Of a stretch of DNA of 64,000 bases, positions 5,264-35,849 are shown in pieces (the stretch's first letter is position 1; every line of letters starts with the position of its first letter). Made by a program: the position numbers and the translations under genes. The notes beneath the pieces were generated by a model, which searched no databases, was not told the origin of the DNA, and saw nothing but the letters and a program-made list of their open reading frames with translations. This DNA comes from Candidatus Omnitrophota bacterium (GTDB lineage: Bacteria > Omnitrophota > Gorgyraeia > Pluralincolimonadales > Pluralincolimonadaceae): contig JBAZJG010000001.1 of NCBI GenBank assembly GCA_041651455.1, forward strand, positions 146,535 through 210,534, written 5' to 3'.

Positions 5264-6408
5264 AGAAACGCATGGCTATCGCTATAATATCGTGCTGCGC
5301 AGTTATAGCGGTTGTTTTCCCGTTTGCGATGCTTGCAAACAAGTATACTGCATATTTCGCCTACAAGGAAATAACCTATAAGACTATGGCCGATAGTATA
5401 GCCGGCGGGCCGGGTGGGCCCGAAGAAGAAGCGACTCGCATCAGCAGTTATCTTCACCGGCACTTGTTCACGCCTTTCGGGGCTCAGGCTGTAGATAAAG
5501 ACACCTATAACGATATCATCAGGGGAATAGCCTATTGTGACCAGAAAGCCTGGGGGATGTCCGCTTTTCTCGCGAAACGTGGTATAGACAGCAGGATGGT
5601 GATGACGGTAAATCCCGACGGCCAGTCTAACCATACCATTTTGGAGGTCGATATAGAGGAAGGATGGAGATATTATGATCCTCAGTACTCCCTTGTTATA
5701 CGCGGGAAGGACGATGAGCTTGCGTCATACAGTGATATATGCAGGGAACCGTCGCTACTGGTCAATTCTCACAGGATGCGCCTGCTGAAGAAGGCTTGCC
5801 CTGCGGAGTACGGGATTATTAGCAAGTACCTGGAAAAGAACGTGTTCAATCCGGGAATCATAAAACCGATAGTATGGAACAGCTCCGCCAAAAGCAAGGG
5901 AGGCGCAGCACGCGTTTTGTCGCGAGTATTAGATGTTTATGTCACGATCTTCGGTAGTAAATTTTCCCGCCTCTACCAGGATGCATATCTGGGCGTATAT
6001 TCCGGAAAGGGCGGCCATAATGCCGATTATCTGCTCGCGAGAAATTACGATATCTATGGAAGATATGATAAAGCGGTTCATTATTACAGGAAGTTCATCA
6101 GGAATTCTTCTTCAGATGACGAAAGGTATCCCGCTATGTTGTTCCTTTCGATCGTATATACAAAAAAAGGGGATTATAAAGCCGCGATTGACACCCTCAA
6201 GGCTATGATAGAGGAGACGGGGTCATCGAAATGGGCGTCGTCCATATATTATTGGCTCGGTTATAATTATGAGGCCCGGAATGAAGCGGAAAAAGCCGCT
6301 GATTGTTACAGAATCTCCATCAGGGAACACGTGAAGTCGGGGAACCCTTCTGACGCGATAAAACTGCTCGAACTGGATTCATTCGAAAGGCTTGCGGAAT
6401 TGGAATGA
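5260..6408 (+). CDS. Membrane-anchored transglutaminase-like (papain-like Cys-His-Asp) domain protein with C-terminal TPR repeats
   Basis: N-terminal TM helix. GIAYCDQKAWGMSAFLAKRGI...SNHTILEV...YYDPQY is the transglutaminase-like core. The C-terminus is TPR-like (YYRKFI..., YNYEARNEAEKAADCY). Confidence 0.55.
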   Translation: MKKRMAIAIISCCAVIAVVFPFAMLANKYTAYFAYKEITYKTMADSIAGGPGGPEEEATRISSYLHRHLFTPFGAQAVDKDTYNDIIRGIAYCDQKAWGMSAFLAKRGIDSRMVMTVNPDGQSNHTILEVDIEEGWRYYDPQYSLVIRGKDDELASYSDICREPSLLVNSHRMRLLKKACPAEYGIISKYLEKNVFNPGIIKPIVWNSSAKSKGGAARVLSRVLDVYVTIFGSKFSRLYQDAYLGVYSGKGGHNADYLLARNYDIYGRYDKAVHYYRKFIRNSSSDDERYPAMLFLSIVYTKKGDYKAAIDTLKAMIEETGSSKWASSIYYWLGYNYEARNEAEKAADCYRISIREHVKSGNPSDAIKLLELDSFERLAELE

Positions 6409-8234
6409 AGATAAAACCGTTTATCGTATCTTCAATTATATACGCATCGGCCTCGCTATTATTGCTTGTTAATGTGGCGGCTGGAGAAGGATTATACGAG
6501 AGCTGGGACACGGCCAGGTATATAGCCATATATTTGCTTATCTCGATACTGTATTTTACGAAGATAAGGTATTCTCGCGGGGTAAATATCGCAGAAGGAA
6601 TTATATCTTCCGTAATATTCAGCCTGGGAGCGATGCTTATAAGGATGAACGGCGTATTGCTGGACCTGTCATCTCCGATGAAGATACAGAAGGTATATTT
6701 CCTGGTCATGCTGTTCTCATTCATATGCTTAGTGTATGTTTTATCAATGAAAAATGCAGCTGCCGCGATTCGGCGGGCGCGCGGACACGGCTTCTACCTG
6801 ACGTTCCATTATATAGCGCTTATCCCGTATGCCATATATGAGTTGTGCGTGCAGGGAGGGTTTCGCGGTTGTATTGTATTGGGCGCCGCGCTAGGTATTT
6901 CGGTGGCGACTATATATTTATTGCGTATCAGGCGCATTCGCGAAGCGATAAAAGGGATGGCTTATTACCTTTGGGATGCAAAACGGTTTCTTGTGATCGT
7001 ATTTATATTCGCTATTGCGGCCAGGGTCATGTTCGCGTTCCAGCTCACAAGGAACCTTCCGGAGGGCTTTATGGAAGGCCCGGACACGCAGGAGATCCAC
7101 GATGAATCCGTCGAGTTGTCGAGGAACTGGGATATACTAGACGGCAAGCCGGTCTTCCTTAACCAGAAGGGTTCCGCGATAATATTCTACGCCGTTATAT
7201 ATAAGGTATTCGGCGCGGACCCTCTCTATGGCCGGCTCGCGGATGCGCTCCTCAACGCGCTATGCGTTCTGATGGCGTTCTATATCGCGGATAAACTGTT
7301 CGGGCGCGCCGCCGCAAGGATAGCCGCGCTGCTCGGGGCAGGCTACGGATACCTGATACAGTACGGGGTGTATATTGGGACGGAATCGATCGGGCTCTTT
7401 TCGCTGATGCTGTTCGTGTGCGGGATCATAGCGGCGGGGGAGTCAGGAGGGATATCCTGCGGGATATCCTGCGGGATAAGGTCGCATGCGCTCGCGGCGG
7501 TATCGGGGCTTGGCCTTGCAATATGCGTAATGGCCAGGTCGGAGTATTATTATGCGATAGTGCCTTCGCTCATATGGGCCGCCTGGTCGTTAAGGAGGCA
7601 AAAAGCTGCCATAGCGTCGTTCATAGTGAGCTTCGGAGTACTGGCGGCCTTATGGTCATGGAGGAACATGATTGCGTTCGGCGATTTTACCATCTCGCAA
7701 CTGCTGAGCCCCGCGTTCAAGGATGAATGGATGGGGCAGCTCTGGCAGTTCGAGAAAGGCAGGTTCGCGGAGGCTGGCATAGCGGTAACAGGCGTGGGGA
7801 GTATGTTCGCGCAGCTGCTCCTGCATCCGGAGGCCGCGTTCGGAATATTGATGCCGCACATCGCAAAAGGATTCTATAACTTCTGGGATTACAACGTATT
7901 CTTCACGCCGGCATTTATATTCCTTGAGCCGAAGAACTCCTGTTATAATATGACGCTGTGTTTGTACCTGTACATGTTCATGCTGCTCGGGATGCTGATC
8001 AGGCCATGCAGGAGGGGGGCGTCTCTTTTTCTCGCGTTCATCATAATCTTCAAGACGGTAAGCTACATATTCACTACTACGCCGACGTTTTATGAGAACG
8101 GCGCCGTCACGGCGCTATTCAAGGACTGGTACCGTTTCACGATAATCCCGTTCACTCATGTGTTCATGGGGGCCGGGATAGCGTGGCTGATATCAAGGGC
8201 GCGTGACGCAAAAACAGGGAAGGCAAAAGCATGA
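6405..8234 (+). CDS. Polytopic membrane protein. The C-terminal ~400 aa are GT-C-like (ArnT/PMT_2 layout). There is an extra ~200-aa N-terminal membrane domain.
   Basis: Periplasmic-loop acidic motif (GPDTQEIHDESVEL) followed by YAVIYKVFGADPLYGRLADALLNALCVLMAFYIADKLFG, as in GT39/GT83. Many TM helices. ATGA overlap with the upstream gene. Confidence 0.5.
   Translation: MKIKPFIVSSIIYASASLLLLVNVAAGEGLYESWDTARYIAIYLLISILYFTKIRYSRGVNIAEGIISSVIFSLGAMLIRMNGVLLDLSSPMKIQKVYFLVMLFSFICLVYVLSMKNAAAAIRRARGHGFYLTFHYIALIPYAIYELCVQGGFRGCIVLGAALGISVATIYLLRIRRIREAIKGMAYYLWDAKRFLVIVFIFAIAARVMFAFQLTRNLPEGFMEGPDTQEIHDESVELSRNWDILDGKPVFLNQKGSAIIFYAVIYKVFGADPLYGRLADALLNALCVLMAFYIADKLFGRAAARIAALLGAGYGYLIQYGVYIGTESIGLFSLMLFVCGIIAAGESGGISCGISCGIRSHALAAVSGLGLAICVMARSEYYYAIVPSLIWAAWSLRRQKAAIASFIVSFGVLAALWSWRNMIAFGDFTISQLLSPAFKDEWMGQLWQFEKGRFAEAGIAVTGVGSMFAQLLLHPEAAFGILMPHIAKGFYNFWDYNVFFTPAFIFLEPKNSCYNMTLCLYLYMFMLLGMLIRPCRRGASLFLAFIIIFKTVSYIFTTTPTFYENGAVTALFKDWYRFTIIPFTHVFMGAGIAWLISRARDAKTGKAKA
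7449..7478 (+). repeat. Perfect tandem 12-nt repeat (GGGATATCCTGC x2.5) inside the CDS, encoding GISCGISCGI
   Basis: Seen directly in the sequence at 7449-7478. Confidence 0.9.
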
Positions 8235-10397: not shown

Positions 10398-11933
10398 ATG
10401 AAAAGGACCGTAGCCATAGCGCTGCTGTTGCTGATAAACCTTACGGCGCATTTCATGCCGTTCGAAAGGGCTGCGCTTGCTCCGGATGATTACGCGACGC
10501 TCGTAAGGTCGCTTCCGGCAGCGGAAGGCGGGGCCTCTCCCGTAAAGGCGTATGCCGACAGGCCCCTGAATTACGCGTTTTTGGCCTTTCAGGCAAAAAA
10601 CATAGGCGACAATGCCGGGCTTGCGTTCATCCTGCTGTTCCTGTCCGCCTGCGCGCTCCTGCTTGCCGTATTTATGCTGCTCGAAAGGATATTCGGGGAT
10701 ACAGCTGCGGCTTTCATAGGGGCGGCTGTATTCTGCCTGCTGCCGAACAAGCTTGAGACGTACCATACGCTTATATTCCTTAACATAAATCTCGTATCGC
10801 TTATATACGTCGTGAGTTTCGCGTTATTCATCGCACATGCCGGCACGGGCAGGAGGGGCGTCCTTCTTGCATCAGTGCTGTTGTACGCCGCGGGGATATT
10901 CTGGTACGAAGTGGGATTTTTCATGCCTTTGCTGATGTTATCCTATTGTTTCCTGGACAAGAGATGCAGGCCGGTATCGGTAATGCCTTTCATGGCGGCG
11001 GCGTTGTTTTATGCGGTCTACAGGTTCACGGGGGCTTACGGCATGGCCGCCGGGGCGGAAGGGCAGTCCCATTCCGTCTCATTGACTATGCTGCCGCTCA
11101 ACCTCAAGGAACTGTTCCATCATTATGCCGGCAGGTATGCGGCCCGCAGCGTATTATACGGTTTCTATAATTTCGCGGCTATGCAGACCGTATGGCTTGT
11201 CGCCGTATCGGCGGCGCTGATTGCGCTCATCGTTTCGGTGAGGTCCGCAGTCGCGGGCACTGGAACGCCGGAAATAAAAAAGGGCGTCCTGATGTTCGGG
11301 CTGGCAGCGTTCTTAACCATGATGCTGCCGATATTGTTCAATGACAAGGGAGGGATAGGCGGAAGGCACTTGATTCTTCCGTCGATAGGCGTGTCCATAA
11401 TGGCGGTGCCGGCGCTGATGTATGCGGGCAGGATGTGGAAACACATACTGATAGCGTTCATAGCGGTAATGTCGATCGTGGGAGCGGGGAATGCCTGGAC
11501 GCAGGTGGTCGCCTGCCGGATAAACGGCGCGGTGTTCGGGTATTTTAAGTCGAACATCCCGGCGCTGAGATCCGCAAAGGCCGTGGTAATAGATACGAAC
11601 AGTTTTGCCGAGAAGATCAAGTATACGCTGGTGAAGAGGGATTTCAACCTCTTTAACACATATTACGGCGCGCAGGCTTTCGAGGATTGGGGGCTCATAA
11701 GCATGGTAAGGTGGGCGGCAAAAGACAGAGGGAAAGAAGTATACATATCCATAAGCTCGCCGTATACCAAAAAGGGTGAGGTCAAGTTCTGCGTTTACGA
11801 ATATAAGGGATACCGTTCAAAGGACGTAAAGGACATACGCCTGCCCGCCGATGGGACGTTCGTGGTAGGAGCTAAAGAGGTATTCGGAGGCGATACGGAT
11901 GCAGGCATCAGAAAGCTGGGCATAAGGCAATGA
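10398..11933 (+). CDS. Polytopic membrane protein, GT-C-like glycosyltransferase candidate
   Basis: First-loop APDDYATL acidic motif then ...IGDNAGLAFILLFLSACALLLAVFMLLERIFG. More than 10 hydrophobic helices. C-terminal soluble domain. Confidence 0.45.
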   Translation: MKRTVAIALLLLINLTAHFMPFERAALAPDDYATLVRSLPAAEGGASPVKAYADRPLNYAFLAFQAKNIGDNAGLAFILLFLSACALLLAVFMLLERIFGDTAAAFIGAAVFCLLPNKLETYHTLIFLNINLVSLIYVVSFALFIAHAGTGRRGVLLASVLLYAAGIFWYEVGFFMPLLMLSYCFLDKRCRPVSVMPFMAAALFYAVYRFTGAYGMAAGAEGQSHSVSLTMLPLNLKELFHHYAGRYAARSVLYGFYNFAAMQTVWLVAVSAALIALIVSVRSAVAGTGTPEIKKGVLMFGLAAFLTMMLPILFNDKGGIGGRHLILPSIGVSIMAVPALMYAGRMWKHILIAFIAVMSIVGAGNAWTQVVACRINGAVFGYFKSNIPALRSAKAVVIDTNSFAEKIKYTLVKRDFNLFNTYYGAQAFEDWGLISMVRWAAKDRGKEVYISISSPYTKKGEVKFCVYEYKGYRSKDVKDIRLPADGTFVVGAKEVFGGDTDAGIRKLGIRQ

Positions 11934-13273
11934 AAAGGCTCTCGGTAAGGTTCCTGGCGGTCTGCGTAATGTTCGGCGCGTCGTATCTCATATCGCCGGG
12001 CCTCGCGGTATGCATATTGCTGTCCTCGGTGTTCTTTTACGCGATCCGAAGGAATACGGGCGAAGAGGACAGGAGGTTCGTATTATTCGTCTTATCGGTC
12101 GCTATCCTTATTAGGGCTGCGACACTAATTACGTTACAGTACAAGTGTATCTCGATGAACCAGCTGGATATATTCGGTGACGCGCAGGATAATATAATAC
12201 AGGGGATAAATATCAGCGAGTCCATCAGGCATATAAGGGACATCCCCGTGACGTTCCAATCGATTCTATCTAGCAGGTACAATACGCATTCGATGACCAT
12301 ATTCAACGGTATGTACTTCCTGCTGCTCGGTAACGATATCGTGTCGCTGAAATATATCAATGTGCTGGCGATATGCGCTACGGCTTGGTTGGCATATGAC
12401 ATCGCGAAGAAAATATATTCTTCAACGGCCGGCAGGATAGCGCTTATGATCGTGCTGTTCTGGCCAACGTCATTCCTGTGGTCGGTCACGGACCTTAAGG
12501 AAAGTCACCTGCTTTTCGCTATAACCTGCTCGTTTTGGCTGCTGTACAAGGCGGAAAGTGAAAAGGGAGTGCTCAGGAAGATGGCGTTAACGGGGATGTC
12601 GGTGCTGTTCGCGTCCTATTTCGTGTTATTGAAGGTAAAGCTAATGATGCCTATATTTGTCCTGTCCGTGGCGCTGATAGCATTGCATAGGATATTGTAT
12701 TACGGATTCTCGAAGAACGCTGCCTTGTCAAGGAAAATGCTATATTTATCGGTCATCCCTTTAACGGTCATCTTCATATCGTTCGGCGGATGGATACAGC
12801 AGGCCATCAGGGAAATGTACGCGCTCATAATCCATTATCATATAGGGTTCCTTAACAGCGGCGGGTGGAATATTGACCTGATAGGAGACCAGGCACAGAA
12901 CCATTTTACGATACAATTTATAATTAGTTATATCTCGAAGGCGTGGTTATTTTTCCTTTTTGAACCGCTTCCATGGCACTTTTATTCGTTCTCCCTTATG
13001 GTTACTTACCCGATGATGATCGCATGGTATATCATCGTGGCGTATTCTGTTATCGGTATCGGGAGGATATATTACACGGGAAAAACAAAGAAGATATTTG
13101 CAATGATCGTATTCACGGTTATATATGTCACGGTCGTCGGGATGTCTGTGGCGAATATCGGGACCTTAATACGTTTCAGGGATGTAATTGTACCTATAGT
13201 CGCGGTATTCGCGGGGATAGGGCTGTCAGGGGTGTCGCGGGCGAAGGAGGAGAGATGCAGGAACATACGATAA
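11930..13273 (+). CDS. Polytopic membrane protein, GT-C-like glycosyltransferase or polymerase candidate
   Basis: LDIFGDAQDN loop motif then a hydrophobic core (YFLLLGNDIVSLKYINVLAICATAWLAYDIAKKIY). ~12 predicted helices. Confidence 0.4.
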   Translation: MKRLSVRFLAVCVMFGASYLISPGLAVCILLSSVFFYAIRRNTGEEDRRFVLFVLSVAILIRAATLITLQYKCISMNQLDIFGDAQDNIIQGINISESIRHIRDIPVTFQSILSSRYNTHSMTIFNGMYFLLLGNDIVSLKYINVLAICATAWLAYDIAKKIYSSTAGRIALMIVLFWPTSFLWSVTDLKESHLLFAITCSFWLLYKAESEKGVLRKMALTGMSVLFASYFVLLKVKLMMPIFVLSVALIALHRILYYGFSKNAALSRKMLYLSVIPLTVIFISFGGWIQQAIREMYALIIHYHIGFLNSGGWNIDLIGDQAQNHFTIQFIISYISKAWLFFLFEPLPWHFYSFSLMVTYPMMIAWYIIVAYSVIGIGRIYYTGKTKKIFAMIVFTVIYVTVVGMSVANIGTLIRFRDVIVPIVAVFAGIGLSGVSRAKEERCRNIR

Positions 13274-14706
13274 GGAAGGCCTTGATACCGGCGGCCGGGA
13301 AAGGCATAAGGGCATATCCTAAGAGCAGGTATATTCCGAAGACACTCCTCGAGATAGAAGGAAAACCCCTGATCGAGAATAATATAGCGATATTGAGGGA
13401 CCAGCTAGGGATAAAGGACATTACCGTAATCGTGGGGCACCTTGCCGATAAGATAAAGGCACGGCTCGGGGATGGGAGCCGGCTTGGGGTGTCGGTAAAG
13501 TACGTGGATTGCGGCGATCCCGACGAGGGCCTCGCGAAAGGCATACTGCTGGCAGAGAAGGAGTTCAACGAGCCGTTCATATGTATGCTGGGCGATGAGT
13601 ACTACTTCGGCTCCAACCATTCCGGGCTCGCGAAGATCCCTGCGGATGCCGGCTATGTCTGCGCGGTCAAACATTCGTCCGACATAAAGTCCATCAAGAA
13701 AAATTATAACGTCGAGATAGAGGGCGGGTTCGTCAGCAGGATAATCGAGAAGCCGGCCGAGATCAGGCAATGGAACCTCGGGTGCGGGACATACCTGCTT
13801 AGGCCCGAGATATTCGGCCTGATACGCAGGACAAAGCCGTCCCACAGGAGCCATAAGGTCGAATTCATGGATTCGCTCGACCTCGCCGTGCAGGAAGGCG
13901 CGAAGGTGAAGCCGTACTACCTCGAAGGCATATACTATAACATCAATACCATCGAAGACGTGAACCAGTGCAATTATGATATCCGTTCGCTGAATTTCGG
14001 CAAATACAAGGTAAGCGTCGTGATACCCGCGCATAATGAGGAAGCGACCATAGCTACCGTCATCGAGGACCTGCGGCAGCACGTCGACGAGGTGCTTGTA
14101 GTCAATAACGGCTCGAACGACAGGACCTCCGAGGTCAGCAGGAAGGCCGGCGCGAGAGTCGAGGAGGTCTCGTTGAAGGGCTACGGCGACACTATAAAGC
14201 ACGGCCTCGAAAAGGCGTCCGGCGACATATTCATCGTGACCGAGGCGGATTATTCGTTCCGGTCTAAGGATATAGGCAAGTTCCTCGAGTACATAAAAGA
14301 TGCCGACATGGTCATTGGCACGCGGACGACGCGGCAGCTCGTTGAACAGGGGGCGAACATGAGCCTGATGCTGCTGCTCGGGAACCTTGTATACGCGAAG
14401 ATAGTCGAGATCCTCTGGTGGGGCATCGACCCGCCGCGTTTTACCGATGTCGGCTGCACCTACAGGGCCATTTGGAAGAGCTCTTTCGAGAAGATAAAAG
14501 GCGACCTGAGGTCTACGGGGCCGGAATTTTCCGTCGAGATGATGATAAAGACGCTCAAATACAAACTGCGCGTCCTTGAGATACCGATATCGTATTACCC
14601 GCGCCTCGAAGGCGTATCGAAACATTCGAAGAACTGGTTCGGCATCCTGAGGACCGCCTCGAGGATGATGCGCCTTATAATAAGAGAAAGGCTGGACAAC
14701 AGGTGA
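13255..14706 (+). CDS. Two-domain fusion: an N-terminal sugar-1-phosphate nucleotidyltransferase domain and a C-terminal GT2 (DPM1-like) domain
   Basis: LIPAAGKGIRAYPKSRYIPKTLLEIEGKPLI is the NTP-transferase G-loop. From ~aa 250: VSVVIPAHNEEATI...LVVNNGSNDRTSE...TEADYSF, a GT2 domain. ATG at 13255 with an AAGGAGG RBS. The longer 12973 start is rejected because it overlaps the upstream membrane-protein gene for 300 nt. Confidence 0.6.
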   Translation: MQEHTIRKALIPAAGKGIRAYPKSRYIPKTLLEIEGKPLIENNIAILRDQLGIKDITVIVGHLADKIKARLGDGSRLGVSVKYVDCGDPDEGLAKGILLAEKEFNEPFICMLGDEYYFGSNHSGLAKIPADAGYVCAVKHSSDIKSIKKNYNVEIEGGFVSRIIEKPAEIRQWNLGCGTYLLRPEIFGLIRRTKPSHRSHKVEFMDSLDLAVQEGAKVKPYYLEGIYYNINTIEDVNQCNYDIRSLNFGKYKVSVVIPAHNEEATIATVIEDLRQHVDEVLVVNNGSNDRTSEVSRKAGARVEEVSLKGYGDTIKHGLEKASGDIFIVTEADYSFRSKDIGKFLEYIKDADMVIGTRTTRQLVEQGANMSLMLLLGNLVYAKIVEILWWGIDPPRFTDVGCTYRAIWKSSFEKIKGDLRSTGPEFSVEMMIKTLKYKLRVLEIPISYYPRLEGVSKHSKNWFGILRTASRMMRLIIRERLDNR

Positions 14707-16151
14707 AGCGCGCGATAAGGAAAGCGCTGCTCTGCTATCCGCCGGTGGGGCTGTTCCAGAGGGGCGAGGAGAGGTGCCAGGCGGATATCGAGGGCTCGGC
14801 GACACAGGCGCCTCATGCACCGAACGACCTCGGGTATATCGCAGCGTGCCTCGGGAGGCTCGGGACCGGATGCGTCATAAGGGATTATCCGGCCGAGGGG
14901 ACGACCGAAGAGGCGGTACTGGAAGAGGTAAAGGCATACTCGCCGGACCTTGTGCTTATCAGTACGACTACGCCTACGTTCCCCGAGGATGTCCGGTTCC
15001 TCGAAAAAGTGAAGTCGGCGCTGCCGGGCGCGTTTACCGTCGCGAAGGGAAGCTGTTTCTGCTCGCTTCCTCTGGATGAACTGCGGAAGAGCGAATACAA
15101 GCCGCTCGACGCTGCCATTTACGGGGAAGCCGAGTTCATAATAGAAGACCTTGTGAATGCTCTCGCAGCGGGCGAGCCTATCGACGGCATAAGCGGGATA
15201 ATAGTAAATATAGGCGATAGGGGTGCGGCAAGGACCGCGCGCCCCCAGTTCCGCGAAGACCTCGATTCCCTTCCGTTCCCGGCGAGGGGCCTGATGAATA
15301 ACGGGCTCTACAGGAACCCGCTTACCGGCAGGCCGATGGCTACGATCCTTGTGTCCCGCGGGTGCCCGTCCCAGTGCATATTCTGCCTAACCCCGGTCAT
15401 ATCCGGGCATAAGTTCAGGAAGAGGTCCGTCGGCAACGTCCTCGATGAGATAAGGGATTGCGTCAAGAATTACGGCATCAGGGATTTCTTCTTCCGCGCC
15501 GACACCTTTACCATGGATAATGGATACGTGAAACAGCTGTGCGGCAGGATAATCGGGGAAGGCCTCAAGATAACATGGGTGGCCAACAGCAGGGCCGACG
15601 TCGTGGACAAGGAACTGCTCGCGGTGATGAAAGCGGCGGGATGCGCGCTCGTAGCGTTCGGGTTCGAGTCCGGCAACGAGGATATACAGCGCAAGGTCAA
15701 GAAGAACGCTTCCGCGGATGACGCGCGCCGCGCGGTAAGGTTATGCAAGGAAGCCGGCCTGAAGACACTCGGGTTCTTTATGATAGGTTTCCCTTGGGAC
15801 GACGAGAAGACGGTAGAGGACACGGCCGCTCTCGCAAGGGAGCTCGACTGCGATTTCATAGAAGTGCATATAGCGCTGCCGTTCGAGGGCACGGAGCTTA
15901 ACGACATATGCCGGGACCTCGGGCTAATAAAGGAGACATCGGTCGGGTACAACTATTTCTCCAATCCGTACGGCGGCGGGACACTGCACCTTAGCAGTGA
16001 ACGCCTGGTGCAACTCAGGAAGGATATCATAAAGAGGCAGTACCTGCGGCTGCCGTACATATTCCGCATGCTTACGAACTGCGGCTCTTTTTATGAATTC
16101 ATGAACTATATAAAGTACGGTTTCAGGCTCATCGGAAAGGTCGCGCGTTGA
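14703..16151 (+). CDS. B12-binding-domain radical SAM enzyme (class B; probable cobalamin-dependent methyltransferase)
   Basis: N-terminal B12-binding-like Rossmann domain. CPSQCIFC (CxxxCxxC) radical SAM motif. GTG start overlapping the upstream stop (GTGA). Confidence 0.7.
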   Translation: MKRAIRKALLCYPPVGLFQRGEERCQADIEGSATQAPHAPNDLGYIAACLGRLGTGCVIRDYPAEGTTEEAVLEEVKAYSPDLVLISTTTPTFPEDVRFLEKVKSALPGAFTVAKGSCFCSLPLDELRKSEYKPLDAAIYGEAEFIIEDLVNALAAGEPIDGISGIIVNIGDRGAARTARPQFREDLDSLPFPARGLMNNGLYRNPLTGRPMATILVSRGCPSQCIFCLTPVISGHKFRKRSVGNVLDEIRDCVKNYGIRDFFFRADTFTMDNGYVKQLCGRIIGEGLKITWVANSRADVVDKELLAVMKAAGCALVAFGFESGNEDIQRKVKKNASADDARRAVRLCKEAGLKTLGFFMIGFPWDDEKTVEDTAALARELDCDFIEVHIALPFEGTELNDICRDLGLIKETSVGYNYFSNPYGGGTLHLSSERLVQLRKDIIKRQYLRLPYIFRMLTNCGSFYEFMNYIKYGFRLIGKVAR

Positions 16152-17278
16152 GGAAGATATCGTTACCGGCATATGAGGCCTCGCGCTGCCGCCTGTACGC
16201 GCTGGGCAGGAACGCGATGTATGCCGCGTGCAGGGCCTTCGGCCTGAAGGAGGGCGACGAAATATTGACGCCCGCATTCGATTGCGACGGGTCCCTGCAG
16301 CCGTTCAGGGCGCTCGGGCTGAAACTGAAGTTTTACCGCTCGGACCCGTACACCTTCGAGGCGGATACGGGCGATATGGAGAAAAGGATGGGACCGTCAA
16401 CAAGGATGGTCCACGTAATCAACCATTTCGGGATGCCCCAGCCGTGGGGCAGGATAAAGGGGATCTGCGGGGCCTTAAGGGTCCCTGTCATGGAGGACTG
16501 CGCATATTCGCTGTTCTCAGACGGATTCGGAACGAACGGCGACGCCGCGATATTCTCGCTGAGGAAGAACCTGCCGATGGTAGACGGCGGGATGCTCCGT
16601 ATGAACAACGGAAATTTCGCGCTGGGCCGTCAGGCAGAACGCGCGCCTCTGTTCTACAGGACGGAATCGGCAAATGTCCTGACATTGATCAAATCGGCCA
16701 TGGGATATTATAAGGCGCCCGAAGGGCTCAGGCGTATTCTAAGGAAGGCCAATCCCGCGGTGGAACCTCCTCCGCCTTTGTATTCGGAGAAGGAGAAAGG
16801 GTATCCCGAGTGGCCCCTGCGCGACCATACGGGGGAAGAGTTTAGCTGCGGCTATGAAAGGCCCATCTCCGCGCTGGCGAGGTTCCAGCTGGAAGGCCTG
16901 CCGGAAGGATATTATAAAAATGCCGCGGAGACGAAACGGCGTTATTATTCGGAGCTCGCCGGGAAGTTCGCCGGATTGAACGGGATACGGGTTCTCTGGC
17001 CGGAACTTCCGGAAGGCATAGTCCCTTTTTGCCTTTCCGTATTAATTAACCGGGACAGGGACCGCATTTTCGCGGAATTGAGGAAGAAATATGATGTGAT
17101 GGCCTGGCCGACGCTTTCGCGGGAAGTCATCGACCGGCTTGGCGAATACCCGGAAGTGGAGATCCTCGGCAGGAAGGTCCTGCAGTTCAACCTGTCGGCA
17201 GACAAGGTCATGAGGCGGGATTACCCGCAGTATATAGGCAGGCTCGCGGACGATTTTACCGCGTTAACGGTGAGATAG
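16148..17278 (+). CDS. DegT/DnrJ/EryC1-type PLP-dependent sugar aminotransferase-like protein with a shortened N-terminus
   Basis: GRNAMYAACRAFGLKEGDEILTPAFDCDGSL...LKLKFY matches the DegT GRSAL...GDEVI.P.FTF motif but begins at aa ~18. A possible catalytic Lys is in FSLRKNLP. TTG start (TTGA overlap). Confidence 0.5.
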   Translation: MRKISLPAYEASRCRLYALGRNAMYAACRAFGLKEGDEILTPAFDCDGSLQPFRALGLKLKFYRSDPYTFEADTGDMEKRMGPSTRMVHVINHFGMPQPWGRIKGICGALRVPVMEDCAYSLFSDGFGTNGDAAIFSLRKNLPMVDGGMLRMNNGNFALGRQAERAPLFYRTESANVLTLIKSAMGYYKAPEGLRRILRKANPAVEPPPPLYSEKEKGYPEWPLRDHTGEEFSCGYERPISALARFQLEGLPEGYYKNAAETKRRYYSELAGKFAGLNGIRVLWPELPEGIVPFCLSVLINRDRDRIFAELRKKYDVMAWPTLSREVIDRLGEYPEVEILGRKVLQFNLSADKVMRRDYPQYIGRLADDFTALTVR

Positions 17279-27213: not shown

Positions 27214-29121
27214 ATGTGCGGGATCTGCGGTATCATAGACATCTCCGGAAGGCCTGTCAACGCAGATACTGTAAAAGCCATGTGCTCGGAGATGAAGCAC
27301 AGGGGCCCTGACGACGAAGGGATATACCTGAACGCGGCTTGCGAACGCAGCTCCGGCAGAGGCCCCTCTGCCGCGCTCGGACACAGGAGGCTGAGCATCA
27401 TTGACCTCTCGTCGTGCGCGAAGCAGCCGATGTCAAACGAGGACGGTTCGGTATGGCTTGTCCTGAACGGCGAGATATATAATTACAACGAACTGAGGCC
27501 CGGGCTTGAGAGCAAGGGCCATAAGTTCAGGTCGCATTCCGATACAGAAACGCTCGTGCACCTGTACGAGGAGTACGGCGGGAAATGCGTCGACAAGCTC
27601 AGGGGGATGTTCGCGTTCGCGATCTGGGATGATAATAAGAAGGAGCTTTTTGCGGCCAGGGACAGGGTCGGGAAGAAGCCGTTCGTATACCAGCATAAGG
27701 ACGGAAGGTTCGTGTTCGCGTCGGAGTTCGCGGCGCTCCTGAAGAGCGGCGAGATATCACGGAAAGTAAGCGATGACGCGATACACTATTACATGAGCCT
27801 CGGTTACGTCCCGGCCCCGGCGTCGGCGCTGGAAGGCGTAAACAAGCTGCCGCCGGCCCATTGCCTTACGCTTTCAAAATCCGGCCTGAAGGTGGAACGT
27901 TACTGGGAACTGGATTATTCCAGGAAGCTGAAGATAAGCGAGGAAGACGCCGCCGCCGAGGTCAAAAGGCTTTCGGAGGAAGCAGTAAAGATAAGGCTGT
28001 TCAGTGACGTACCGCTCGGAGCGTTCCTTAGCGGAGGGGTCGACTCAAGCTGCGTAGTGGCGATGATGAGCAAGCTCTCCCCGGGAAAGGTCAGGACCTT
28101 TACGATAGGCTTCGAGGAGAAGGACTACAGCGAACTCGAATACGCAAGGAAGATATCCGGCATTTTCGGCACCGAACACCGCGAGTTTATCGTGAAGCCG
28201 AACGCGCTCGATATAATAGGCATGCTCGCGGAAAGGTACGGCGAACCGTATGCCGACTCTTCGTGCATACCGACATACTACGTATCGAAGGAGACGCGCG
28301 CATTCGTGACGGTCGCCCTGAACGGAGACGGCGGCGACGAATCCTTCGCCGGATACGAACGTTACCAGGCGATGAGCGCGGCGGAAAAGATCCGCGGCCT
28401 CGGGATGGGCGCGGCGGCCAGGGCTGCCTCGTCTTTATTGCCGGACTCTACGAACCCTAAAGACCTGGCGCGCAGGGCCAGGAGGTTCCTGACTAACGCC
28501 GGCCTGCCCGCGGCCGAAAGGTATTTGAGGTGGGTAGGAATTGCAGGGGAGGTGAAACCGGAGAAACTGTATTCCGGGGACTACCTCGGCCGGATAGATA
28601 AGGCCGGCCCGTTGCGCCTTTTAAAACCGTATATAGACGGCAAGTCGTGCCCGGAGTTCCTCGACAGGCTGCTGAAGGCCGACGTAAATACGTCGCTGCC
28701 GAACGACCTGCTCGTAAAGGTCGATATCGCGGGCATGGCAGCGTCGCTCGAAGGGCGTTCGCCGTTCCTCGACCATAAACTTATGGAATTTGCGGCTTCG
28801 CTTCCCTCGTCCTATAAGATAAAAGGAAACACCAAGAAGTACATACTTAAGAAGGCCTTCTCAGGGGTGATACCCGACGATATATTATCGAGGAGGAAGA
28901 TGGGTTTCGGCGTGCCGGTAAGCGCGTGGTTCAGGGGGGAGCTTAAGGGCATGCTGACGGAGACGCTTCTTTCAAGGGCGTCGCTATCGAGGGGATATTT
29001 CAGGCAGGAGGCGGTAAAAGGGATGGTCGATAACCATACCTCCGGAAGGAAGGATTATTCGTTCCAGTTGTGGGCTATGTTGATGCTCGAGCTGTGGCAT
29101 AAGAGGTTCATCGACGGATGA
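27214..29121 (+). CDS. asnB: Asparagine synthetase B-type glutamine amidotransferase (WbpS-like, in the glycan cluster)
   Basis: MCGICGI N-terminal Ntn-Cys. SGGVDSS PP-loop. Full-length 635 aa. Confidence 0.8.
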   Translation: MCGICGIIDISGRPVNADTVKAMCSEMKHRGPDDEGIYLNAACERSSGRGPSAALGHRRLSIIDLSSCAKQPMSNEDGSVWLVLNGEIYNYNELRPGLESKGHKFRSHSDTETLVHLYEEYGGKCVDKLRGMFAFAIWDDNKKELFAARDRVGKKPFVYQHKDGRFVFASEFAALLKSGEISRKVSDDAIHYYMSLGYVPAPASALEGVNKLPPAHCLTLSKSGLKVERYWELDYSRKLKISEEDAAAEVKRLSEEAVKIRLFSDVPLGAFLSGGVDSSCVVAMMSKLSPGKVRTFTIGFEEKDYSELEYARKISGIFGTEHREFIVKPNALDIIGMLAERYGEPYADSSCIPTYYVSKETRAFVTVALNGDGGDESFAGYERYQAMSAAEKIRGLGMGAAARAASSLLPDSTNPKDLARRARRFLTNAGLPAAERYLRWVGIAGEVKPEKLYSGDYLGRIDKAGPLRLLKPYIDGKSCPEFLDRLLKADVNTSLPNDLLVKVDIAGMAASLEGRSPFLDHKLMEFAASLPSSYKIKGNTKKYILKKAFSGVIPDDILSRRKMGFGVPVSAWFRGELKGMLTETLLSRASLSRGYFRQEAVKGMVDNHTSGRKDYSFQLWAMLMLELWHKRFIDG

Positions 29122-29133
29122 GTGAGGGTAAAA

Positions 29134-30978
29134 ATGCTTAAGAACCATGACATAATATGCATATCTTCGATCGACTGGGATTTTATATGGCAGGGGCACC
29201 AGGAGATCATGTCCGCGTTCGCCGCGAACGGCAACCGCATCCTGTTCATCGAGAACACGGGAGTGCGCGCTCCGAAGATAAGGGACATATCCCGCCTGCG
29301 TAAAAGGTTCAAGGATTACTTCAGGGGCGTCAAGGGAATCAGGGAAGAGGCGAAGAACCTTTATATATACTCCCCTATAGTCCTGCCGTTCCCGTACTCT
29401 CGAATAGCGAGGATGGTCAATAAGTTCATCCTGCTTTCGGTCATCAAGAAATGGATGAGGGCGATGAATTTCGCGAACCCGGTCATATGGACGTTCCTCC
29501 CTACGGGGACCGCGATGGATATCATAGAGAATATAGACAAGAAGCTGCTGATATATTATTGCATAGATAATTTCGCGGTCAGCTCCGCAGCCGCGAAGAA
29601 GATAATCGCGTACGAAAAAAAGCTTATAGGCATCGCGGACCGCGTGTTCGTGACGTCGCAGGCGCTGTATGACCACTGCGCGAGGTTCAACGATAACGTG
29701 ACGCTCTTCCCGTTCGGAGTGAACATAGAAAATTTCGAGAAGGTCAGGAAGGAGCGGACGGAGATACCCGCGGAGCTGAAGGACTTGAAGCCGCCGGTCA
29801 TCGGTTATGTCGGAGGGGTGCACAAGTGGATAGATTTCGAGCTTGTCAAATATGCCGCTTCCGCGCATCCGGAGATGCAGTTCGTCTTCGTGGGTCCGGT
29901 GCAAACGGACGTGTCGCAGCTGTCCGGCTGTCCCAACATCCGCCTTTTAGGCGGACGCAAGCATTCCGAGCTTCCGAACCTCGTGAAGCATTTTACCGCG
30001 GCCGTAATACCTTACCTGTTGACCGAATATACGAAGAACGTATACCCGACAAAGCTTAACGAATACCTTGCAATGGGAAAGCCGGTAATATCATCATATC
30101 TTCCCGAGGTGGATACCTTCAACGGGAGGTATGGCGGTATCGTATATATTGGCAGGGACAAACAGGAGTTCTCATCGTTGTTGTCCAGGGCGATAGCTGA
30201 GGATAACGACGCCCTGAAGGAGAAAAGGATATCGGCGGCGTCGGAGAACAGCTGGAAGTCGCGCATAGAACTAATGAGCGCGGCCATAGAAGAAGCTATT
30301 GAGGAGAAAACAAAGAAGAGCGAAGCCGGCTGGAAGGACAGCCTCGCGGGATTGTTTGCCGCGGCAACGCGCAGGATCGCGCGGCCGGTAGTATATATCG
30401 CCGCGGCACTGCTGTTGGTATTCTGCACACCCGCGGTATGGTTCCTTGCGGAGCCGTTGAAGATAAGCGAGCAGCCTCAAAAGGCCGACGCGATAGTTGT
30501 ATTCGCCGGAGGCACCGGGGAATCGGGAAAGAGAGGGCAAGGATACGAAGAGAGGGTCGAATACGCGGTCGAACTTTATAAGAAAGGCTATGCGGAAAAC
30601 ATTGTATTCTCGTCGGGATATTCATATGCGATAAAGGAAGTCGATATCATGAAAGCGTTGGCGGTGTCGATGGGAGTGCCCGCAAGCGCGATTACGTTGG
30701 AAGACAGGTCCGGATATACGTATGAATTCGTGAAGAACACGAACGATATCGTGCGCAGGAACGGCTGGAAGAAGATACTGCTCGTCAGTTCACCTTATCA
30801 TATGAGGCGCGCCTCGCTGGTTTATGGTAAACTGGGAGGAAGCATAGACGTCATATATACGCCTATCAGGGACAGCAAGTTCTATAAGCACGGGTTCGGT
30901 GCGTCCCCGAGGCAGATAAAGGGCATTTTACACGAGTATGCGGGAATAGTATATTACCTGGTAAAGGGGTATATCTAA
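29134..30978 (+). CDS. Fusion: N-terminal GT-B glycosyltransferase domain, a TM helix, and a C-terminal DUF218 (YdcF/SanA/ElyC-like) domain
   Basis: Rossmann-like GT-B halves (ICISSIDWDF..., VIGYVGGVHKWIDFELV..., LAMGKPVISS). Hydrophobic segment VVYIAAALLLVFCTPAVWF. Then ADAIVVFAGGTG...IVFSSGY...LVSSPYHMRRA, typical DUF218. ATG 29134 with a GAGGG RBS. GTG 29122 is an alternative. Confidence 0.55.
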   Translation: MLKNHDIICISSIDWDFIWQGHQEIMSAFAANGNRILFIENTGVRAPKIRDISRLRKRFKDYFRGVKGIREEAKNLYIYSPIVLPFPYSRIARMVNKFILLSVIKKWMRAMNFANPVIWTFLPTGTAMDIIENIDKKLLIYYCIDNFAVSSAAAKKIIAYEKKLIGIADRVFVTSQALYDHCARFNDNVTLFPFGVNIENFEKVRKERTEIPAELKDLKPPVIGYVGGVHKWIDFELVKYAASAHPEMQFVFVGPVQTDVSQLSGCPNIRLLGGRKHSELPNLVKHFTAAVIPYLLTEYTKNVYPTKLNEYLAMGKPVISSYLPEVDTFNGRYGGIVYIGRDKQEFSSLLSRAIAEDNDALKEKRISAASENSWKSRIELMSAAIEEAIEEKTKKSEAGWKDSLAGLFAAATRRIARPVVYIAAALLLVFCTPAVWFLAEPLKISEQPQKADAIVVFAGGTGESGKRGQGYEERVEYAVELYKKGYAENIVFSSGYSYAIKEVDIMKALAVSMGVPASAITLEDRSGYTYEFVKNTNDIVRRNGWKKILLVSSPYHMRRASLVYGKLGGSIDVIYTPIRDSKFYKHGFGASPRQIKGILHEYAGIVYYLVKGYI

Positions 30979-34058: not shown

Positions 34059-35849
34059 GTGGCTTATGTTTACCTTTTTTTAACCGCTTTTTCAATAGCG
34101 TTCCTTGCGACCCCGGTCGTTAAGGCGGCGGCATGCCGCCTCGGTATCGTCGCGAAGCCGAAAGAAGACAGGTGGCATAAGAAAGTGATACCGCTGATGG
34201 GCGGCATCGCGATATTCGCGGCGTTCATGGCGACCTACCTTGTATTCATGCGCGGCGGGAAGATCAATATGGGGCTCGTAGTGGGCGGCACATCGATATT
34301 CCTGCTTGGTGTTGTAGACGATATCAGGGGCCTGAGCCCCCAGTCGAAGCTTGTCGGGCAGATCATATGCGCCTCGCTGGCAGTGATGTTCGGCGTCTCG
34401 ATAAAGGTAATACCGTTCGCCGCGATATCGGTCCCGCTTACGATCCTCTGGATGGTCGGGATCACGAATTCATTCAACCTTCTTGATAACATGGACGGGC
34501 TGTCGGCGGGCGTTACGGCGATAGCGTCGTTGACGATCTTCGCATGCTCGCTCGCGCTGCACAATTACGAGATAGCGATGGTATCGCTGATAATGGCCGG
34601 CGCCTCGCTCGGTTTCCTGCCGCATAATTTCTATCCCGCGAGGATCTTTATGGGCGACTGCGGCGCGATGTTCCTCGGTTTTACGCTGTCGGCGCTTACG
34701 ATAATGGGCACATGGAAAGAGGTCTCGCACCTTTTCCTCGTCCTGCTCGTCCCTGTGCTCGCGCTGGCCGTCCCGATATTCGATACGCTCTTCGTCGCTA
34801 TAACGCGCACGATAGACGGCAGGTCTGTCGCAAAAGGCGGCAAGGACCATACGTCGCACAGGATGGTCTTCCTCGGATGGCAGGAGAGGAAGGCGGTCAT
34901 GGTGCTTTACTCGATATCGATCCTGTTCGGCGCCGCGGCATATATATCGCTCCACGTGAAGATATACGTAAGCGCCGTCATTATGTCGCTGCTCGTGCTG
35001 GTCATCTCGGTGTTCGCGATATTCCTGAACCATTCCACTATGTCAAGGCGCTCATCGAGGCAGCCCGGCGATAAAGAAGTCTCGTTTTACAAGAACGAAT
35101 CCGAGCTGATAGAAGCCCTGGTAAAATACAAGAGGGTCATATTCGAGGTAATATGCGATTTCATCCTGATATGCCTCGCGTACATGTCGAGCTATATAAT
35201 GAGGTACGAGGGGATAATAGACCATTATAATTTCGGGCTTATAGCTAAATCGCTGCCGATAATTATCGTGATAAAGCTGCTGGCCTTTTCCGTAAGCGGC
35301 GTATACGGGAACATCTGGCGGTATATAGGGCTCAACGAGTTGATCAATATCGTGAAGGGCATAACATTGGGCTCTATAGCGTCGGTCGTGGTCATGGTCA
35401 TCGCATTCAGGTTCGAAGGATTTTCGAGGATGATATTCGTACTCGACGCGATGGTCCTGCTGATACTGATGTCGGCCGTAAGGATAGCTTTCAGGATATT
35501 CAGGGAACAGCTGTTCGTCTCATTCGAAGGCCAGGGCAGGAGGGTCCTCATATTCGGCGCCGGGGACGCGGGTGACGCGTTCCTGCGCGAGATAAGGAAG
35601 AACAGGTCGCTGAACTACCGCCCGATAGGTTTTATCGACGACGACCTCTCGAAACAGGGACGAAGGATACAGGCCGTCCCGGTGCTCGGCGTGAGGTCGG
35701 ATATACCGAGGCTCGTGGAGGAGAAGAATATAGACGAGATAATTCTTGCGATCCCGTCCGCGGACAATAAGACCAAGGATGATATTGAAGCCATATGCAG
35801 GGAGAGCGGCGCGGAGTACCACCAGATAAGCGGGATATACCTTAAGTGA
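34059..35849 (+). CDS. Fusion: WecA/MraY-family polyprenyl-phosphate N-acetylhexosamine-1-phosphate transferase (PNPT) with the WbpM/PglF-type N-terminal 4-TM plus Rossmann-like (CoA-binding-like) domain
   Basis: NSFNLLDNMDGLSAG is the PNPT signature. The C-terminal 260 aa have TM helices then RVLIFGAGDAGDAFLREIRKNRSLNYRPIGFIDDDLSKQGRRIQAVPVLG...IILAIPSA. GTG start. Confidence 0.65.
   Translation: MAYVYLFLTAFSIAFLATPVVKAAACRLGIVAKPKEDRWHKKVIPLMGGIAIFAAFMATYLVFMRGGKINMGLVVGGTSIFLLGVVDDIRGLSPQSKLVGQIICASLAVMFGVSIKVIPFAAISVPLTILWMVGITNSFNLLDNMDGLSAGVTAIASLTIFACSLALHNYEIAMVSLIMAGASLGFLPHNFYPARIFMGDCGAMFLGFTLSALTIMGTWKEVSHLFLVLLVPVLALAVPIFDTLFVAITRTIDGRSVAKGGKDHTSHRMVFLGWQERKAVMVLYSISILFGAAAYISLHVKIYVSAVIMSLLVLVISVFAIFLNHSTMSRRSSRQPGDKEVSFYKNESELIEALVKYKRVIFEVICDFILICLAYMSSYIMRYEGIIDHYNFGLIAKSLPIIIVIKLLAFSVSGVYGNIWRYIGLNELINIVKGITLGSIASVVVMVIAFRFEGFSRMIFVLDAMVLLILMSAVRIAFRIFREQLFVSFEGQGRRVLIFGAGDAGDAFLREIRKNRSLNYRPIGFIDDDLSKQGRRIQAVPVLGVRSDIPRLVEEKNIDEIILAIPSADNKTKDDIEAICRESGAEYHQISGIYLK

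Follow-up and report, generated by a model that had tools for sequence, protein, structure and literature searches.

Can one bacterial gene encode both the enzyme that activates a sugar and the enzyme that loads it onto a lipid carrier? The question is raised by an open reading frame (ORF) in a 64,000-nucleotide stretch of DNA (the window) from Candidatus Omnitrophota bacterium (GenBank assembly GCA_041651455.1, contig JBAZJG010000001.1, positions 146,535 to 210,534 of the forward strand), which a preliminary description had read as a sugar-1-phosphate nucleotidyltransferase fused to a DPM1-like family 2 glycosyltransferase (GT2). We found that the fusion is a single real gene and not an assembly artefact, and we favour, with moderate confidence, the reading that it encodes a bifunctional nucleoside diphosphate (NDP)-sugar synthase and polyprenyl-phosphate (Pren-P) glycosyltransferase, which supplies a periplasmic GT-C fold enzyme in a lipopolysaccharide (LPS)-type gene cluster. 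The gene, its ribosome-binding site and the junction between its halves are located as follows.

13255-14706, + strand: fusion gene, 483 aa, sugar-1-phosphate nucleotidyltransferase plus DPM1-like GT2 lacking transmembrane (TM) helices (translation, Pfam, NCBIfam, homologues, AF2 model)
13245-13250, + strand: Shine-Dalgarno sequence AGGAGG, with a 4-nt spacer to the ATG at 13255, inside the 3' end of the upstream GT-C gene (sequence)
13951-14010, + strand: domain junction, residues 233-252, in which helix 233-246 leads directly into the first GT2 strand; Y241, R244 and F248 are conserved (alignment, model)

The ORF at 13255-14706 (+) gives an uninterrupted translation of 483 residues from the ATG at 13255 to the TGA at 14704-14706. 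The open frame extends upstream to 12973, yet every homologue starts at the position equivalent to 13255. The upstream ORF of 447 aa ends at 13273, so that the two genes overlap by 19 nt; both this overlap with a membrane-protein gene and the ribosome-binding site are as previously described. The Pfam family NTP_transferase (PF00483) covers residues 8-222 (E 1.3e-14; 54.9 bits, above the curated cut-off of 21.2 bits) and Glycos_transf_2 (PF00535) covers residues 254-379 (E 1.6e-20, well above the curated cut-off). Together with the NCBIfam and structure matches given below, they uphold the reading of one polypeptide with a nucleotidyltransferase and a DPM1-like GT2, and the motif LIPAAGKGIRAYP...TLLEIEGKPLI, quoted earlier as the nucleotidyltransferase signature, is present in the N-terminal half.

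The same architecture is widespread. Searching about 5.8 billion proteins gave 1162 hits, and both Pfam domains were present in the best 120 of them, nearly all of which were 472-558 aa long, with one truncated at 459 aa; the listed homologues, nearly all of about 478-500 aa, included proteins of 95-96% identity from independent assemblies. In addition, when one genome was scanned for each species, 303 species genomes were seen to encode a relative, and 80 of these loci, all from metagenome-assembled genomes (Omnitrophota, Planctomycetota, Acidobacteriota, Gemmatimonadota, Binatia, Deltaproteobacteria, Nitrospiraceae, Chloroflexota and other lineages), were kept for the neighbourhood analyses; loci are cited here by L numbers. 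The fusion thus recurs in related genomes, a check that had been proposed for it. In the independent assembly of L007, whose locus is syntenic with the window, the protein is 98% identical over residues 1-483, and in an alignment of 29 sequences across phyla, used for residue conservation within the fusion family, the domain junction is colinear and free of gaps and indels. Nothing near nt 14000 therefore indicates a frameshift or an assembly error, which would have divided the ORF into two genes. Other lineages do have the two halves as separate genes (L090 and L091, and L088 with one in-frame stop), which could speak for two genes having been joined by a frameshift, a misassembly or a chimeric contig; however, the uninterrupted architecture in independent assemblies (95-98% identity) and 303 species genomes, with a gap-free junction, effectively excludes such an artefact, to which we assign a negligible probability. 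None of the NCBIfam family profiles or PDB structures covers the nucleotidyltransferase-GT2 architecture, no paper on it was found among open-access papers and bioRxiv, and the public annotations of the homologues are generic, being either 'glycosyltransferase' or 'sugar phosphate nucleotidyltransferase'.

The split versions are themselves informative. In L090 (4199-7324) and L091 (2181-5306), which come from different assemblies, a nucleotidyltransferase of 269 aa, 28% identical to the N-terminal half and retaining the family-specific NININT motif, overlaps a GT2 of 241 aa by 8 nt, and a protein of 528 aa with eight TM segments follows the pair. In L088 (1580-3067), the two parts lie in the same frame with one stop codon between them; this codon could mark a genuine boundary or could stem from a nonsense mutation or a sequencing error. 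The occurrence of fused and split states in the same gene order is a classical sign of a functional link. When the C-terminal half alone was used in a HMMER search, fused forms of about 480-510 aa ranked first, followed by stand-alone GT2s and other architectures; the stand-alone GT2 relatives have 224-260 aa, lack TM helices and share the motifs of the C-terminal half. The TM-less GT2 module was also seen in larger proteins (P0176, P0181, P0184 and P0192): those of 670-950 aa in part carry two GT2 stretches, and one protein of 2742 aa carries four.

Is each half a working enzyme? The N-terminal half comprises the following domain.

13276-13992, + strand: nucleotidyltransferase domain, residues 8-246, with the motifs PAAGxGxRAYP...K29 loop, LGDE (112-115), EKP (165-167) and YxNIN (227-231)

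The signature loop P12-A-A-G15-x-G17-x-R19...K29, of which G-x-G-x-R and the Lys serve to bind the NTP phosphates in this superfamily, is at least 90% conserved, and the loop as a whole (PAAGxGxRAYP...K29), LGDE and EKP are invariant or nearly so. These motifs align with GGSGTRLYP, SKQLL, LGDN and EKPA of RmlA; the metal- and sugar-phosphate-binding residues (LGD, EKP) are accompanied by a Rossmann-like fold, for which structure comparison gave the highest score with RmlA (4ecm; 28.6), followed by UGPases, ST0452 and MurU (25-26). The matches listed by Foldseek against the PDB are all of the RmlA type, because these dominate the ranking. The nearest NCBIfam families are archaeal GlmU-N, AglF and long RmlA; however, the scores (at most 112 bits) fall short of the equivalog cut-offs (250-400 bits), so that the N-terminal half belongs to none of the specific equivalogs RmlA, GalU, AglF, GlmU or MurU. 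Since all NCBIfam scores lie far below the equivalog thresholds, no named function can be transferred to either half. Compared with RmlA, GalU, MurU, archaeal GlmU-N (ST0452) and AglF, the domain shares the signature loop, the catalytic Lys/Arg, LGD and EKP, but N111 of RmlA is replaced by an invariant E115, the position of the base-contacting Q83 is variable in the family, and YxNIN takes the place of the WxDxG motif of sugar-1-phosphate nucleotidyltransferases; furthermore, the fusion partner is a glycosyltransferase, whereas elsewhere it is an acetyltransferase (GlmU) or a left-handed helix. One might suppose that this half has only a regulatory or NDP-sugar-binding role, like that seen for GMPPA or for subunits of eIF2B, and that catalysis is confined to the other half, but G15, G17, R19, K29, D114 and E165-K166 are invariant or nearly so across phyla and aligned with active RmlA, which makes this very improbable.

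The C-terminal half contains the elements listed here.

14008-14628, + strand: GT2/GT-A catalytic domain, residues 252-458, with the motifs VIPAxNEE, NxSxD, GYGD, EAD, GTR357, RFTDVGCTYR, GPE and the acceptor loop
14242-14250, + strand: EAD, residues 330-332, DxD-type metal/donor site
14602-14622, + strand: acceptor loop R450..S455-K456, conserved R...SK

With its C-terminal helix, the GT2 domain extends over residues 252-483, and dolichyl-phosphate mannose synthase (DPMS) is its best match in both sequence and structure. The nearest NCBIfam families are AglJ, dolichyl-phosphate hexose transferase and PpgS, and PfDPMS (5mlz) is the only PDB sequence aligning across the entire domain (E 3e-13). 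Structure comparison gave a score of 23.9 for PfDPMS (221 residues, 26% identity), 21.5 for GpgS, 20.3 for MpgS, 18.7 for ArnC and 16.7 for GtrB; the half thus combines a GT2 profile with a GT-A fold nearest to that of a Pren-P glycosyltransferase. In PfDPMS, D39 contacts guanine, R117 the acceptor phosphate, and R202 and K208 belong to the acceptor loop (Gandini et al. 2017, PMC5526996). Specifically, E12 of PfDPMS corresponds to E262 of the fusion, D89/D91 to E330/D332, which constitute a DxD-type site, and R117 (R122 in GtrB), which follows beta5, to R357, all of them invariant in the family; R202/K208 correspond to R450/K456, and with R450, S455 and K456 invariant or nearly so the acceptor loop is retained. 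Both halves look CATALYTICALLY competent, their catalytic motifs being invariant or nearly so across the family, and they are very probably active enzymes of the nucleotidyltransferase and Pren-P glycosyltransferase classes.

The residues that differ bear on the identity of the sugar. K178 of PfDPMS is replaced by an invariant E424 and the guanine-binding D39 by an invariant N285, and the active site of the fusion therefore differs from that of a bona fide DPMS; in addition, Q93 is replaced by S334, and DADLQH reads EADYSF. R131 and S135 of the first interface helix (IFH1), the pair by which PfDPMS positions the lipid phosphate, could not be mapped, as the region aligns poorly (LLLGN here versus the family consensus LRWGN), although N377 is invariant. 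The substitutions at D39, K178, Q93 and D89, with R131/S135 unmapped, indicate that the donor is probably not GDP-mannose. A bona fide DPMS was accordingly rejected on its signature residues (N285 for D39, EADYSF for DADLQH, E424 for K178); by this comparison, the C-terminal half is DPM1-like but is not a mannose-specific DPMS.

How would such a protein reach a lipid substrate? A TM scan found no TM helix in the fusion protein, including the region after the catalytic domain. An AF2 model of the 483-aa protein, built on the 29-sequence alignment, had a mean pLDDT of 86 and a pTM of 0.83, and two helices in it are candidates for membrane contact.

14365-14421, + strand: hydrophobic helix, residues 371-389, at the position of IFH1 in DPMS and flanked by low-confidence loops; mean hydrophobicity 0.40 (model, 5mlz alignment)
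14629-14694, + strand: C-terminal basic amphipathic helix, residues 459-480, equivalent to the second interface helix (IFH2), putative membrane-interface anchor (model, TM scan)

The hydrophobic moment of helix 459-480 (0.72) is the highest in the protein. The low-confidence stretches of the model (360-368, 391-397 and 457-459) flank the IFH1-like helix or directly follow the acceptor-loop SK, and coincide with elements that are mobile in DPMS. The lack of a TM helix, together with the hydrophobic helix 371-389 and the amphipathic helix 459-480, points to an enzyme that binds peripherally at the membrane interface, in the manner of human DPM1, for which DPM3 is the membrane tether. Small ORFs overlapping the start of the fusion in other loci were considered as DPM3-like tethers and rejected, as their products are Arg/Pro-rich and look spurious.

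What, then, would use a lipid-linked sugar made by the fusion? In the tightly packed operon, consecutive genes overlap by 4-19 nt, and the order is WcaF-like acetyltransferase, GT2 of 228 aa, polytopic protein of 511 aa, polytopic protein of 447 aa, fusion and B12-binding radical S-adenosylmethionine (SAM) protein; past the radical SAM gene it continues with genes for a DegT-like protein, a GNAT protein, a polysaccharide deacetylase and further GT2s. The four genes next to the fusion are the following.

11930-13273, + strand: upstream partner, GT-C fold glycosyltransferase (PMT_2/ArnT-like) of 447 aa with about 10 TM segments; overlaps the fusion by 19 nt
10398-11933, + strand: polytopic membrane ORF of 511 aa with nine TM segments, same operon; conserved by the fusion in L007, L008, L010 and L011
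9710-10396, + strand: TM-less GT2 of 228 aa, paralogue of the C-terminal half of the fusion (26% identity, BLASTP E 7e-14, Pfam; R..G.SK kept)
14703-16151, + strand: B12-binding radical SAM gene with a GTG start and a 4-nt overlap with the fusion stop (Pfam; nearest family HpnJ)

In the 447-aa protein, D84 in the FGDAxDN loop is invariant. A GT-C fold transferase is encoded together with the putative synthase, as in three-component systems. The preliminary description had placed the fusion before its GT-C partners; the partnership stands, since a GT-C gene overlaps the fusion and the two are translationally coupled, but the order does not, as the demonstrable GT-C gene (11930-13273) sits immediately upstream and not downstream. 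The 511-aa ORF had no Pfam or NCBIfam match, and hhalign against a PMT_2 cluster gave a probability of only 42-44%; for the membrane ORFs of 511, 609 and 571 aa, the hhalign GT-C probabilities ranged from 3 to 60%. The 511-aa protein may be a second GT-C-like enzyme. The 228-aa GT2, which has NCBIfam matches to ArnC, PpgS and AglJ, may be a second lipid-sugar synthase, forming with the 511-aa protein a second pair of synthase and membrane transferase in the operon. Farther along lie genes for a WecA/MraY-type transferase, an O-antigen-ligase/Wzy_C protein and a GT9 heptosyltransferase, from which we take the surrounding region to be an LPS/O-antigen-type locus.

Does the association with membrane enzymes hold beyond this window? 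When 26 proteins of the window were compared by tblastn with the 80 related loci, most of the fusion's neighbours here proved to be conserved only in the nearest clade (L007-L011), and the context argument was therefore rebuilt from de novo clustering of the neighbours. A polytopic ORF (at least 400 aa with at least five TM or hydrophobic segments) lay within 400 nt of the fusion in 40 of the 80 loci, and the density of such ORFs near the fusion was 6.8 per 10 kb versus 0.4-0.5 per 10 kb at distances of 3-10 kb, an approximately 14-fold enrichment seen in several phyla. PMT_2 matches above the Pfam cut-off were found for neighbour proteins representing 10 clustered Acidobacteriota loci (E 1e-16) and eight clustered Planctomycetota loci (E 1e-7), and for those of single loci from Solibacteraceae (E 3e-12) and Nitrospiraceae (E 9e-9); a Chloroflexota neighbour protein matched GT87 with 24.5 bits, just under the 25-bit cut-off. 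A universal partner orthologue was not found among the 80 loci, as no BLAST-level cluster exceeds 14 of them; what recurs is a class, that of large polytopic/GT-C proteins. In Blastocatellia, the order is deacetylase, fusion and PMT_2 protein, the last with weak, below-cut-off matches to WsfD and Agl23, and genes for an aminotransferase, a 3-dehydrogenase and an acetyltransferase lie upstream; these neighbours, with the deacetylase, hint at an N-acetyl-hexosamine derivative, in that lineage only.

Two further arrangements were seen in these loci. In the Blastocatellia fusion locus L033 (1950-3695, +), a protein of 581 aa joins an XrtA-type polysaccharide deacetylase to an ArnC/PpgS-like GT2 and represents a second, different fusion. 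In about 8-12 Planctomycetota loci (cluster c13; e.g., L021 3612-5588), the fusion is followed by the PMT_2 protein and this in turn by a protein of 658 aa of the sulfatase/phosphodiesterase family (LtaS/EptA-like architecture).

Several observations weigh against a Pren-P glycosyltransferase that supplies a GT-C enzyme. In addition to the substituted DPMS positions (N285 and E424), the unmapped IFH1 residues and the lack of TM helices described above, about half of the 80 related loci lack a polytopic membrane gene beside the fusion; none lies downstream in the cyanobacterial loci L004-L006, whose upstream side is cut off; and the window holds no GtrA-like or ArnE/F-type flippase, as it has no ORF of at least 80 aa with at least three TM segments besides the large proteins. 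The absence of TM helices from the protein and of a membrane partner from these loci, including downstream of the fusion in the cyanobacterial ones, would suit a soluble GpgS/MpgS-like enzyme (GT81/GT78), which would glycosylate a small phosphorylated acceptor (e.g., 3-phosphoglycerate) to give a compatible solute or a primer and beside which the membrane neighbours would be coincidental; GpgS does appear among the sequence matches (E about 5e-6). However, the GpgS alignments span only the first 80 or so residues, the nucleotide-binding part, and do not extend over the full length, whereas the alignment with DPMS continues through R..G.SK of the acceptor loop and through the interface helix. 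Moreover, hydrophobic and amphipathic helices occupy the IFH positions, adjoining polytopic ORFs are enriched about 14-fold in several phyla, and in the window translation of the fusion is coupled to that of a GT-C gene. We give a soluble enzyme of this kind a slim chance.

The radical SAM gene raises the possibility that the acceptor is another lipid or lipid-linked intermediate, e.g., a membrane lipid that is remodelled by the HpnJ-like radical SAM enzyme and the deacetylase, in a manner mirroring HpnI, HpnK and HpnJ on bacteriohopanetetrol. The gene overlaps the stop codon of the fusion, its product has HpnJ, which contracts the glucosamine ring of hopanoids, as the nearest family (E 2.6e-62), a polysaccharide deacetylase is encoded within the operon, and the substrate of HpnJ is lipid-linked glucosamine (PMC9204698). 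The radical SAM gene also adjoins the fusion directly in L007-L011 and L080, and a B12-binding ORF follows a stand-alone GT2 relative in L089. Nevertheless, the HpnJ score (211 bits) is far under the 577-bit cut-off, and a radical SAM neighbour is present in only about 14 of the 80 loci, the polytopic/GT-C neighbours being far more general. The GT2 half matches phosphate-acceptor enzymes (DPMS, AglJ, PpgS and ArnC), with HpnI absent from the 25 NCBIfam families listed, and the equivalent of the phosphate-binding R117 is invariant. We therefore regard glycosylation of another lipid as unlikely; it could also be reconciled with a Pren-P glycosyltransferase if the radical SAM enzyme acted on the polyprenyl-phosphate sugar.

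For the Pren-P glycosyltransferase, the following path is proposed. As its fold and conserved catalytic residues suggest, the RmlA-type domain of the N-terminal half would convert a sugar-1-phosphate and a nucleoside triphosphate into an NDP-sugar. The GT-A domain, held on the cytoplasmic membrane face by two interface helices without a TM anchor, like human DPM1, would transfer the sugar to polyprenyl (undecaprenyl) phosphate, as judged from homology to DPMS, AglJ, PpgS and ArnC, the conserved phosphate- and donor-binding residues and the gene context; we infer this transfer from homology and context. The lipid-linked monosaccharide would be flipped, and the translationally coupled upstream GT-C enzyme, perhaps with the second membrane protein too, would decorate an envelope glycan produced by the LPS/O-antigen-type cluster around it; both of these steps are drawn from gene context. 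The rigid, conserved junction and the high pTM of the model suggest that the product may be channelled between the halves. Fusion of the two steps would give the pathway a private supply of donor sugar.

Periplasmic GT-C glycosylation needs a lipid-linked monosaccharide donor, and GtrB-, ArnC- and DPM1-type enzymes use NDP-sugars of the general pool. The three-component systems (Pren-P glycosyltransferase, flippase and GT-C enzyme) of GtrB, ArnC, PpgS, CsbB and LgmA/FlmF2 follow the same genomic logic as the fusion loci, with a lipid-sugar synthase adjoining a GT-C transferase, but GtrB/ArnC/PpgS-type enzymes have C-terminal TM helices, obtain NDP-sugars from separate enzymes and share low sequence identity with the fusion. 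In Blastocatellia, the deacetylase between or beside the fusion and the PMT_2 gene gives the locus a resemblance to ArnC/ArnD/ArnT. With PfDPMS and human and yeast DPM1, the fusion shares the whole aligned catalytic domain, the DxD-type EAD site, the equivalents of R117, R202 and K208 and the two interface helices. Like human DPM1 it is without a TM anchor, whereas PfDPMS has four TM helices, and yeast DPM1, GtrB, ArnC and PfDPMS all attach to the membrane through such helices; no DPMS has the N-terminal nucleotidyltransferase domain. GlmU, IPCT/DIPPS (4mnd) and PntC-AEPT (6pd1) are fusions that likewise activate and then use a substrate, but their partner domains and chemistry differ, and none joins a nucleotidyltransferase to a GT-A polyprenyl-phosphate glycosyltransferase. 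The fusion is thus set apart from the characterised GtrB, ArnC, DPM1, PpgS and AglJ by its built-in nucleotidyltransferase, as a TM-less bacterial member and by frequent translational coupling to a GT-C gene. The paradigm of three-component periplasmic glycosylation, with a lipid-linked donor and a GT-C transferase, matches the pattern of the loci (PMC11127046). The component superfamilies and the logic of donor supply to GT-C enzymes are already known, the chemistry predicted here combines familiar steps in an ordinary way and is mechanistically unsurprising, and the finding would overturn no concept.

The architecture is nonetheless present in at least 303 species, mostly of uncultivated phyla (Omnitrophota, Planctomycetota, Acidobacteriota, Gemmatimonadota, Binatia, Nitrospirota and others). 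If the proposed path is correct, a large, generically annotated family would gain a specific function and become a natural test case for the coupling of donor synthesis and lipid loading, and the fusion and split pairs would provide a Rosetta-stone link by which orphan GT-C enzymes could be paired with donor pathways. One could go further and suppose that the fusion docks on its coupled GT-C partner, which would take the role of a DPM3-like tether, and that, with the HpnJ-like enzyme, it makes, loads and remodels the lipid-linked sugar (by ring contraction or C-methylation) before GT-C transfer, without a separate flippase. We consider such a machine decidedly unlikely; if it existed, it would represent new lipid-linked sugar chemistry in the Omnitrophota envelope.

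Other genes of the window also showed unusual features. The DegT/DnrJ/EryC1-like protein of the operon (16148-17278, +; 376 aa, TTG start) matches the aminotransferase profile only over residues 21-157, with weak scores, and may be a divergent or non-canonical member. At 6405-8234 (+), a protein of 609 aa with 11-12 TM segments could not be assigned to a family, PMT_2 matching at E 0.005 only; its conservation extends to L007, L008, L010 and L011, and it may be a polymerase or one more GT-C-like enzyme. At 27214-30978 (+), an asparagine synthase (glutamine-hydrolysing) homologue lies inside the glycan cluster and is followed by a GT4-DUF218 fusion of 618 aa. CoA_binding_3 usually accompanies WbaP-type Bac_transf initiating transferases; in a protein of 596 aa (34059-35849, +), a polytopic WecA/MraY-type Glycos_transf_4 domain (residues 72-217) is followed by a C-terminal CoA_binding_3 domain (residues 420-576), a combination that looks unusual.

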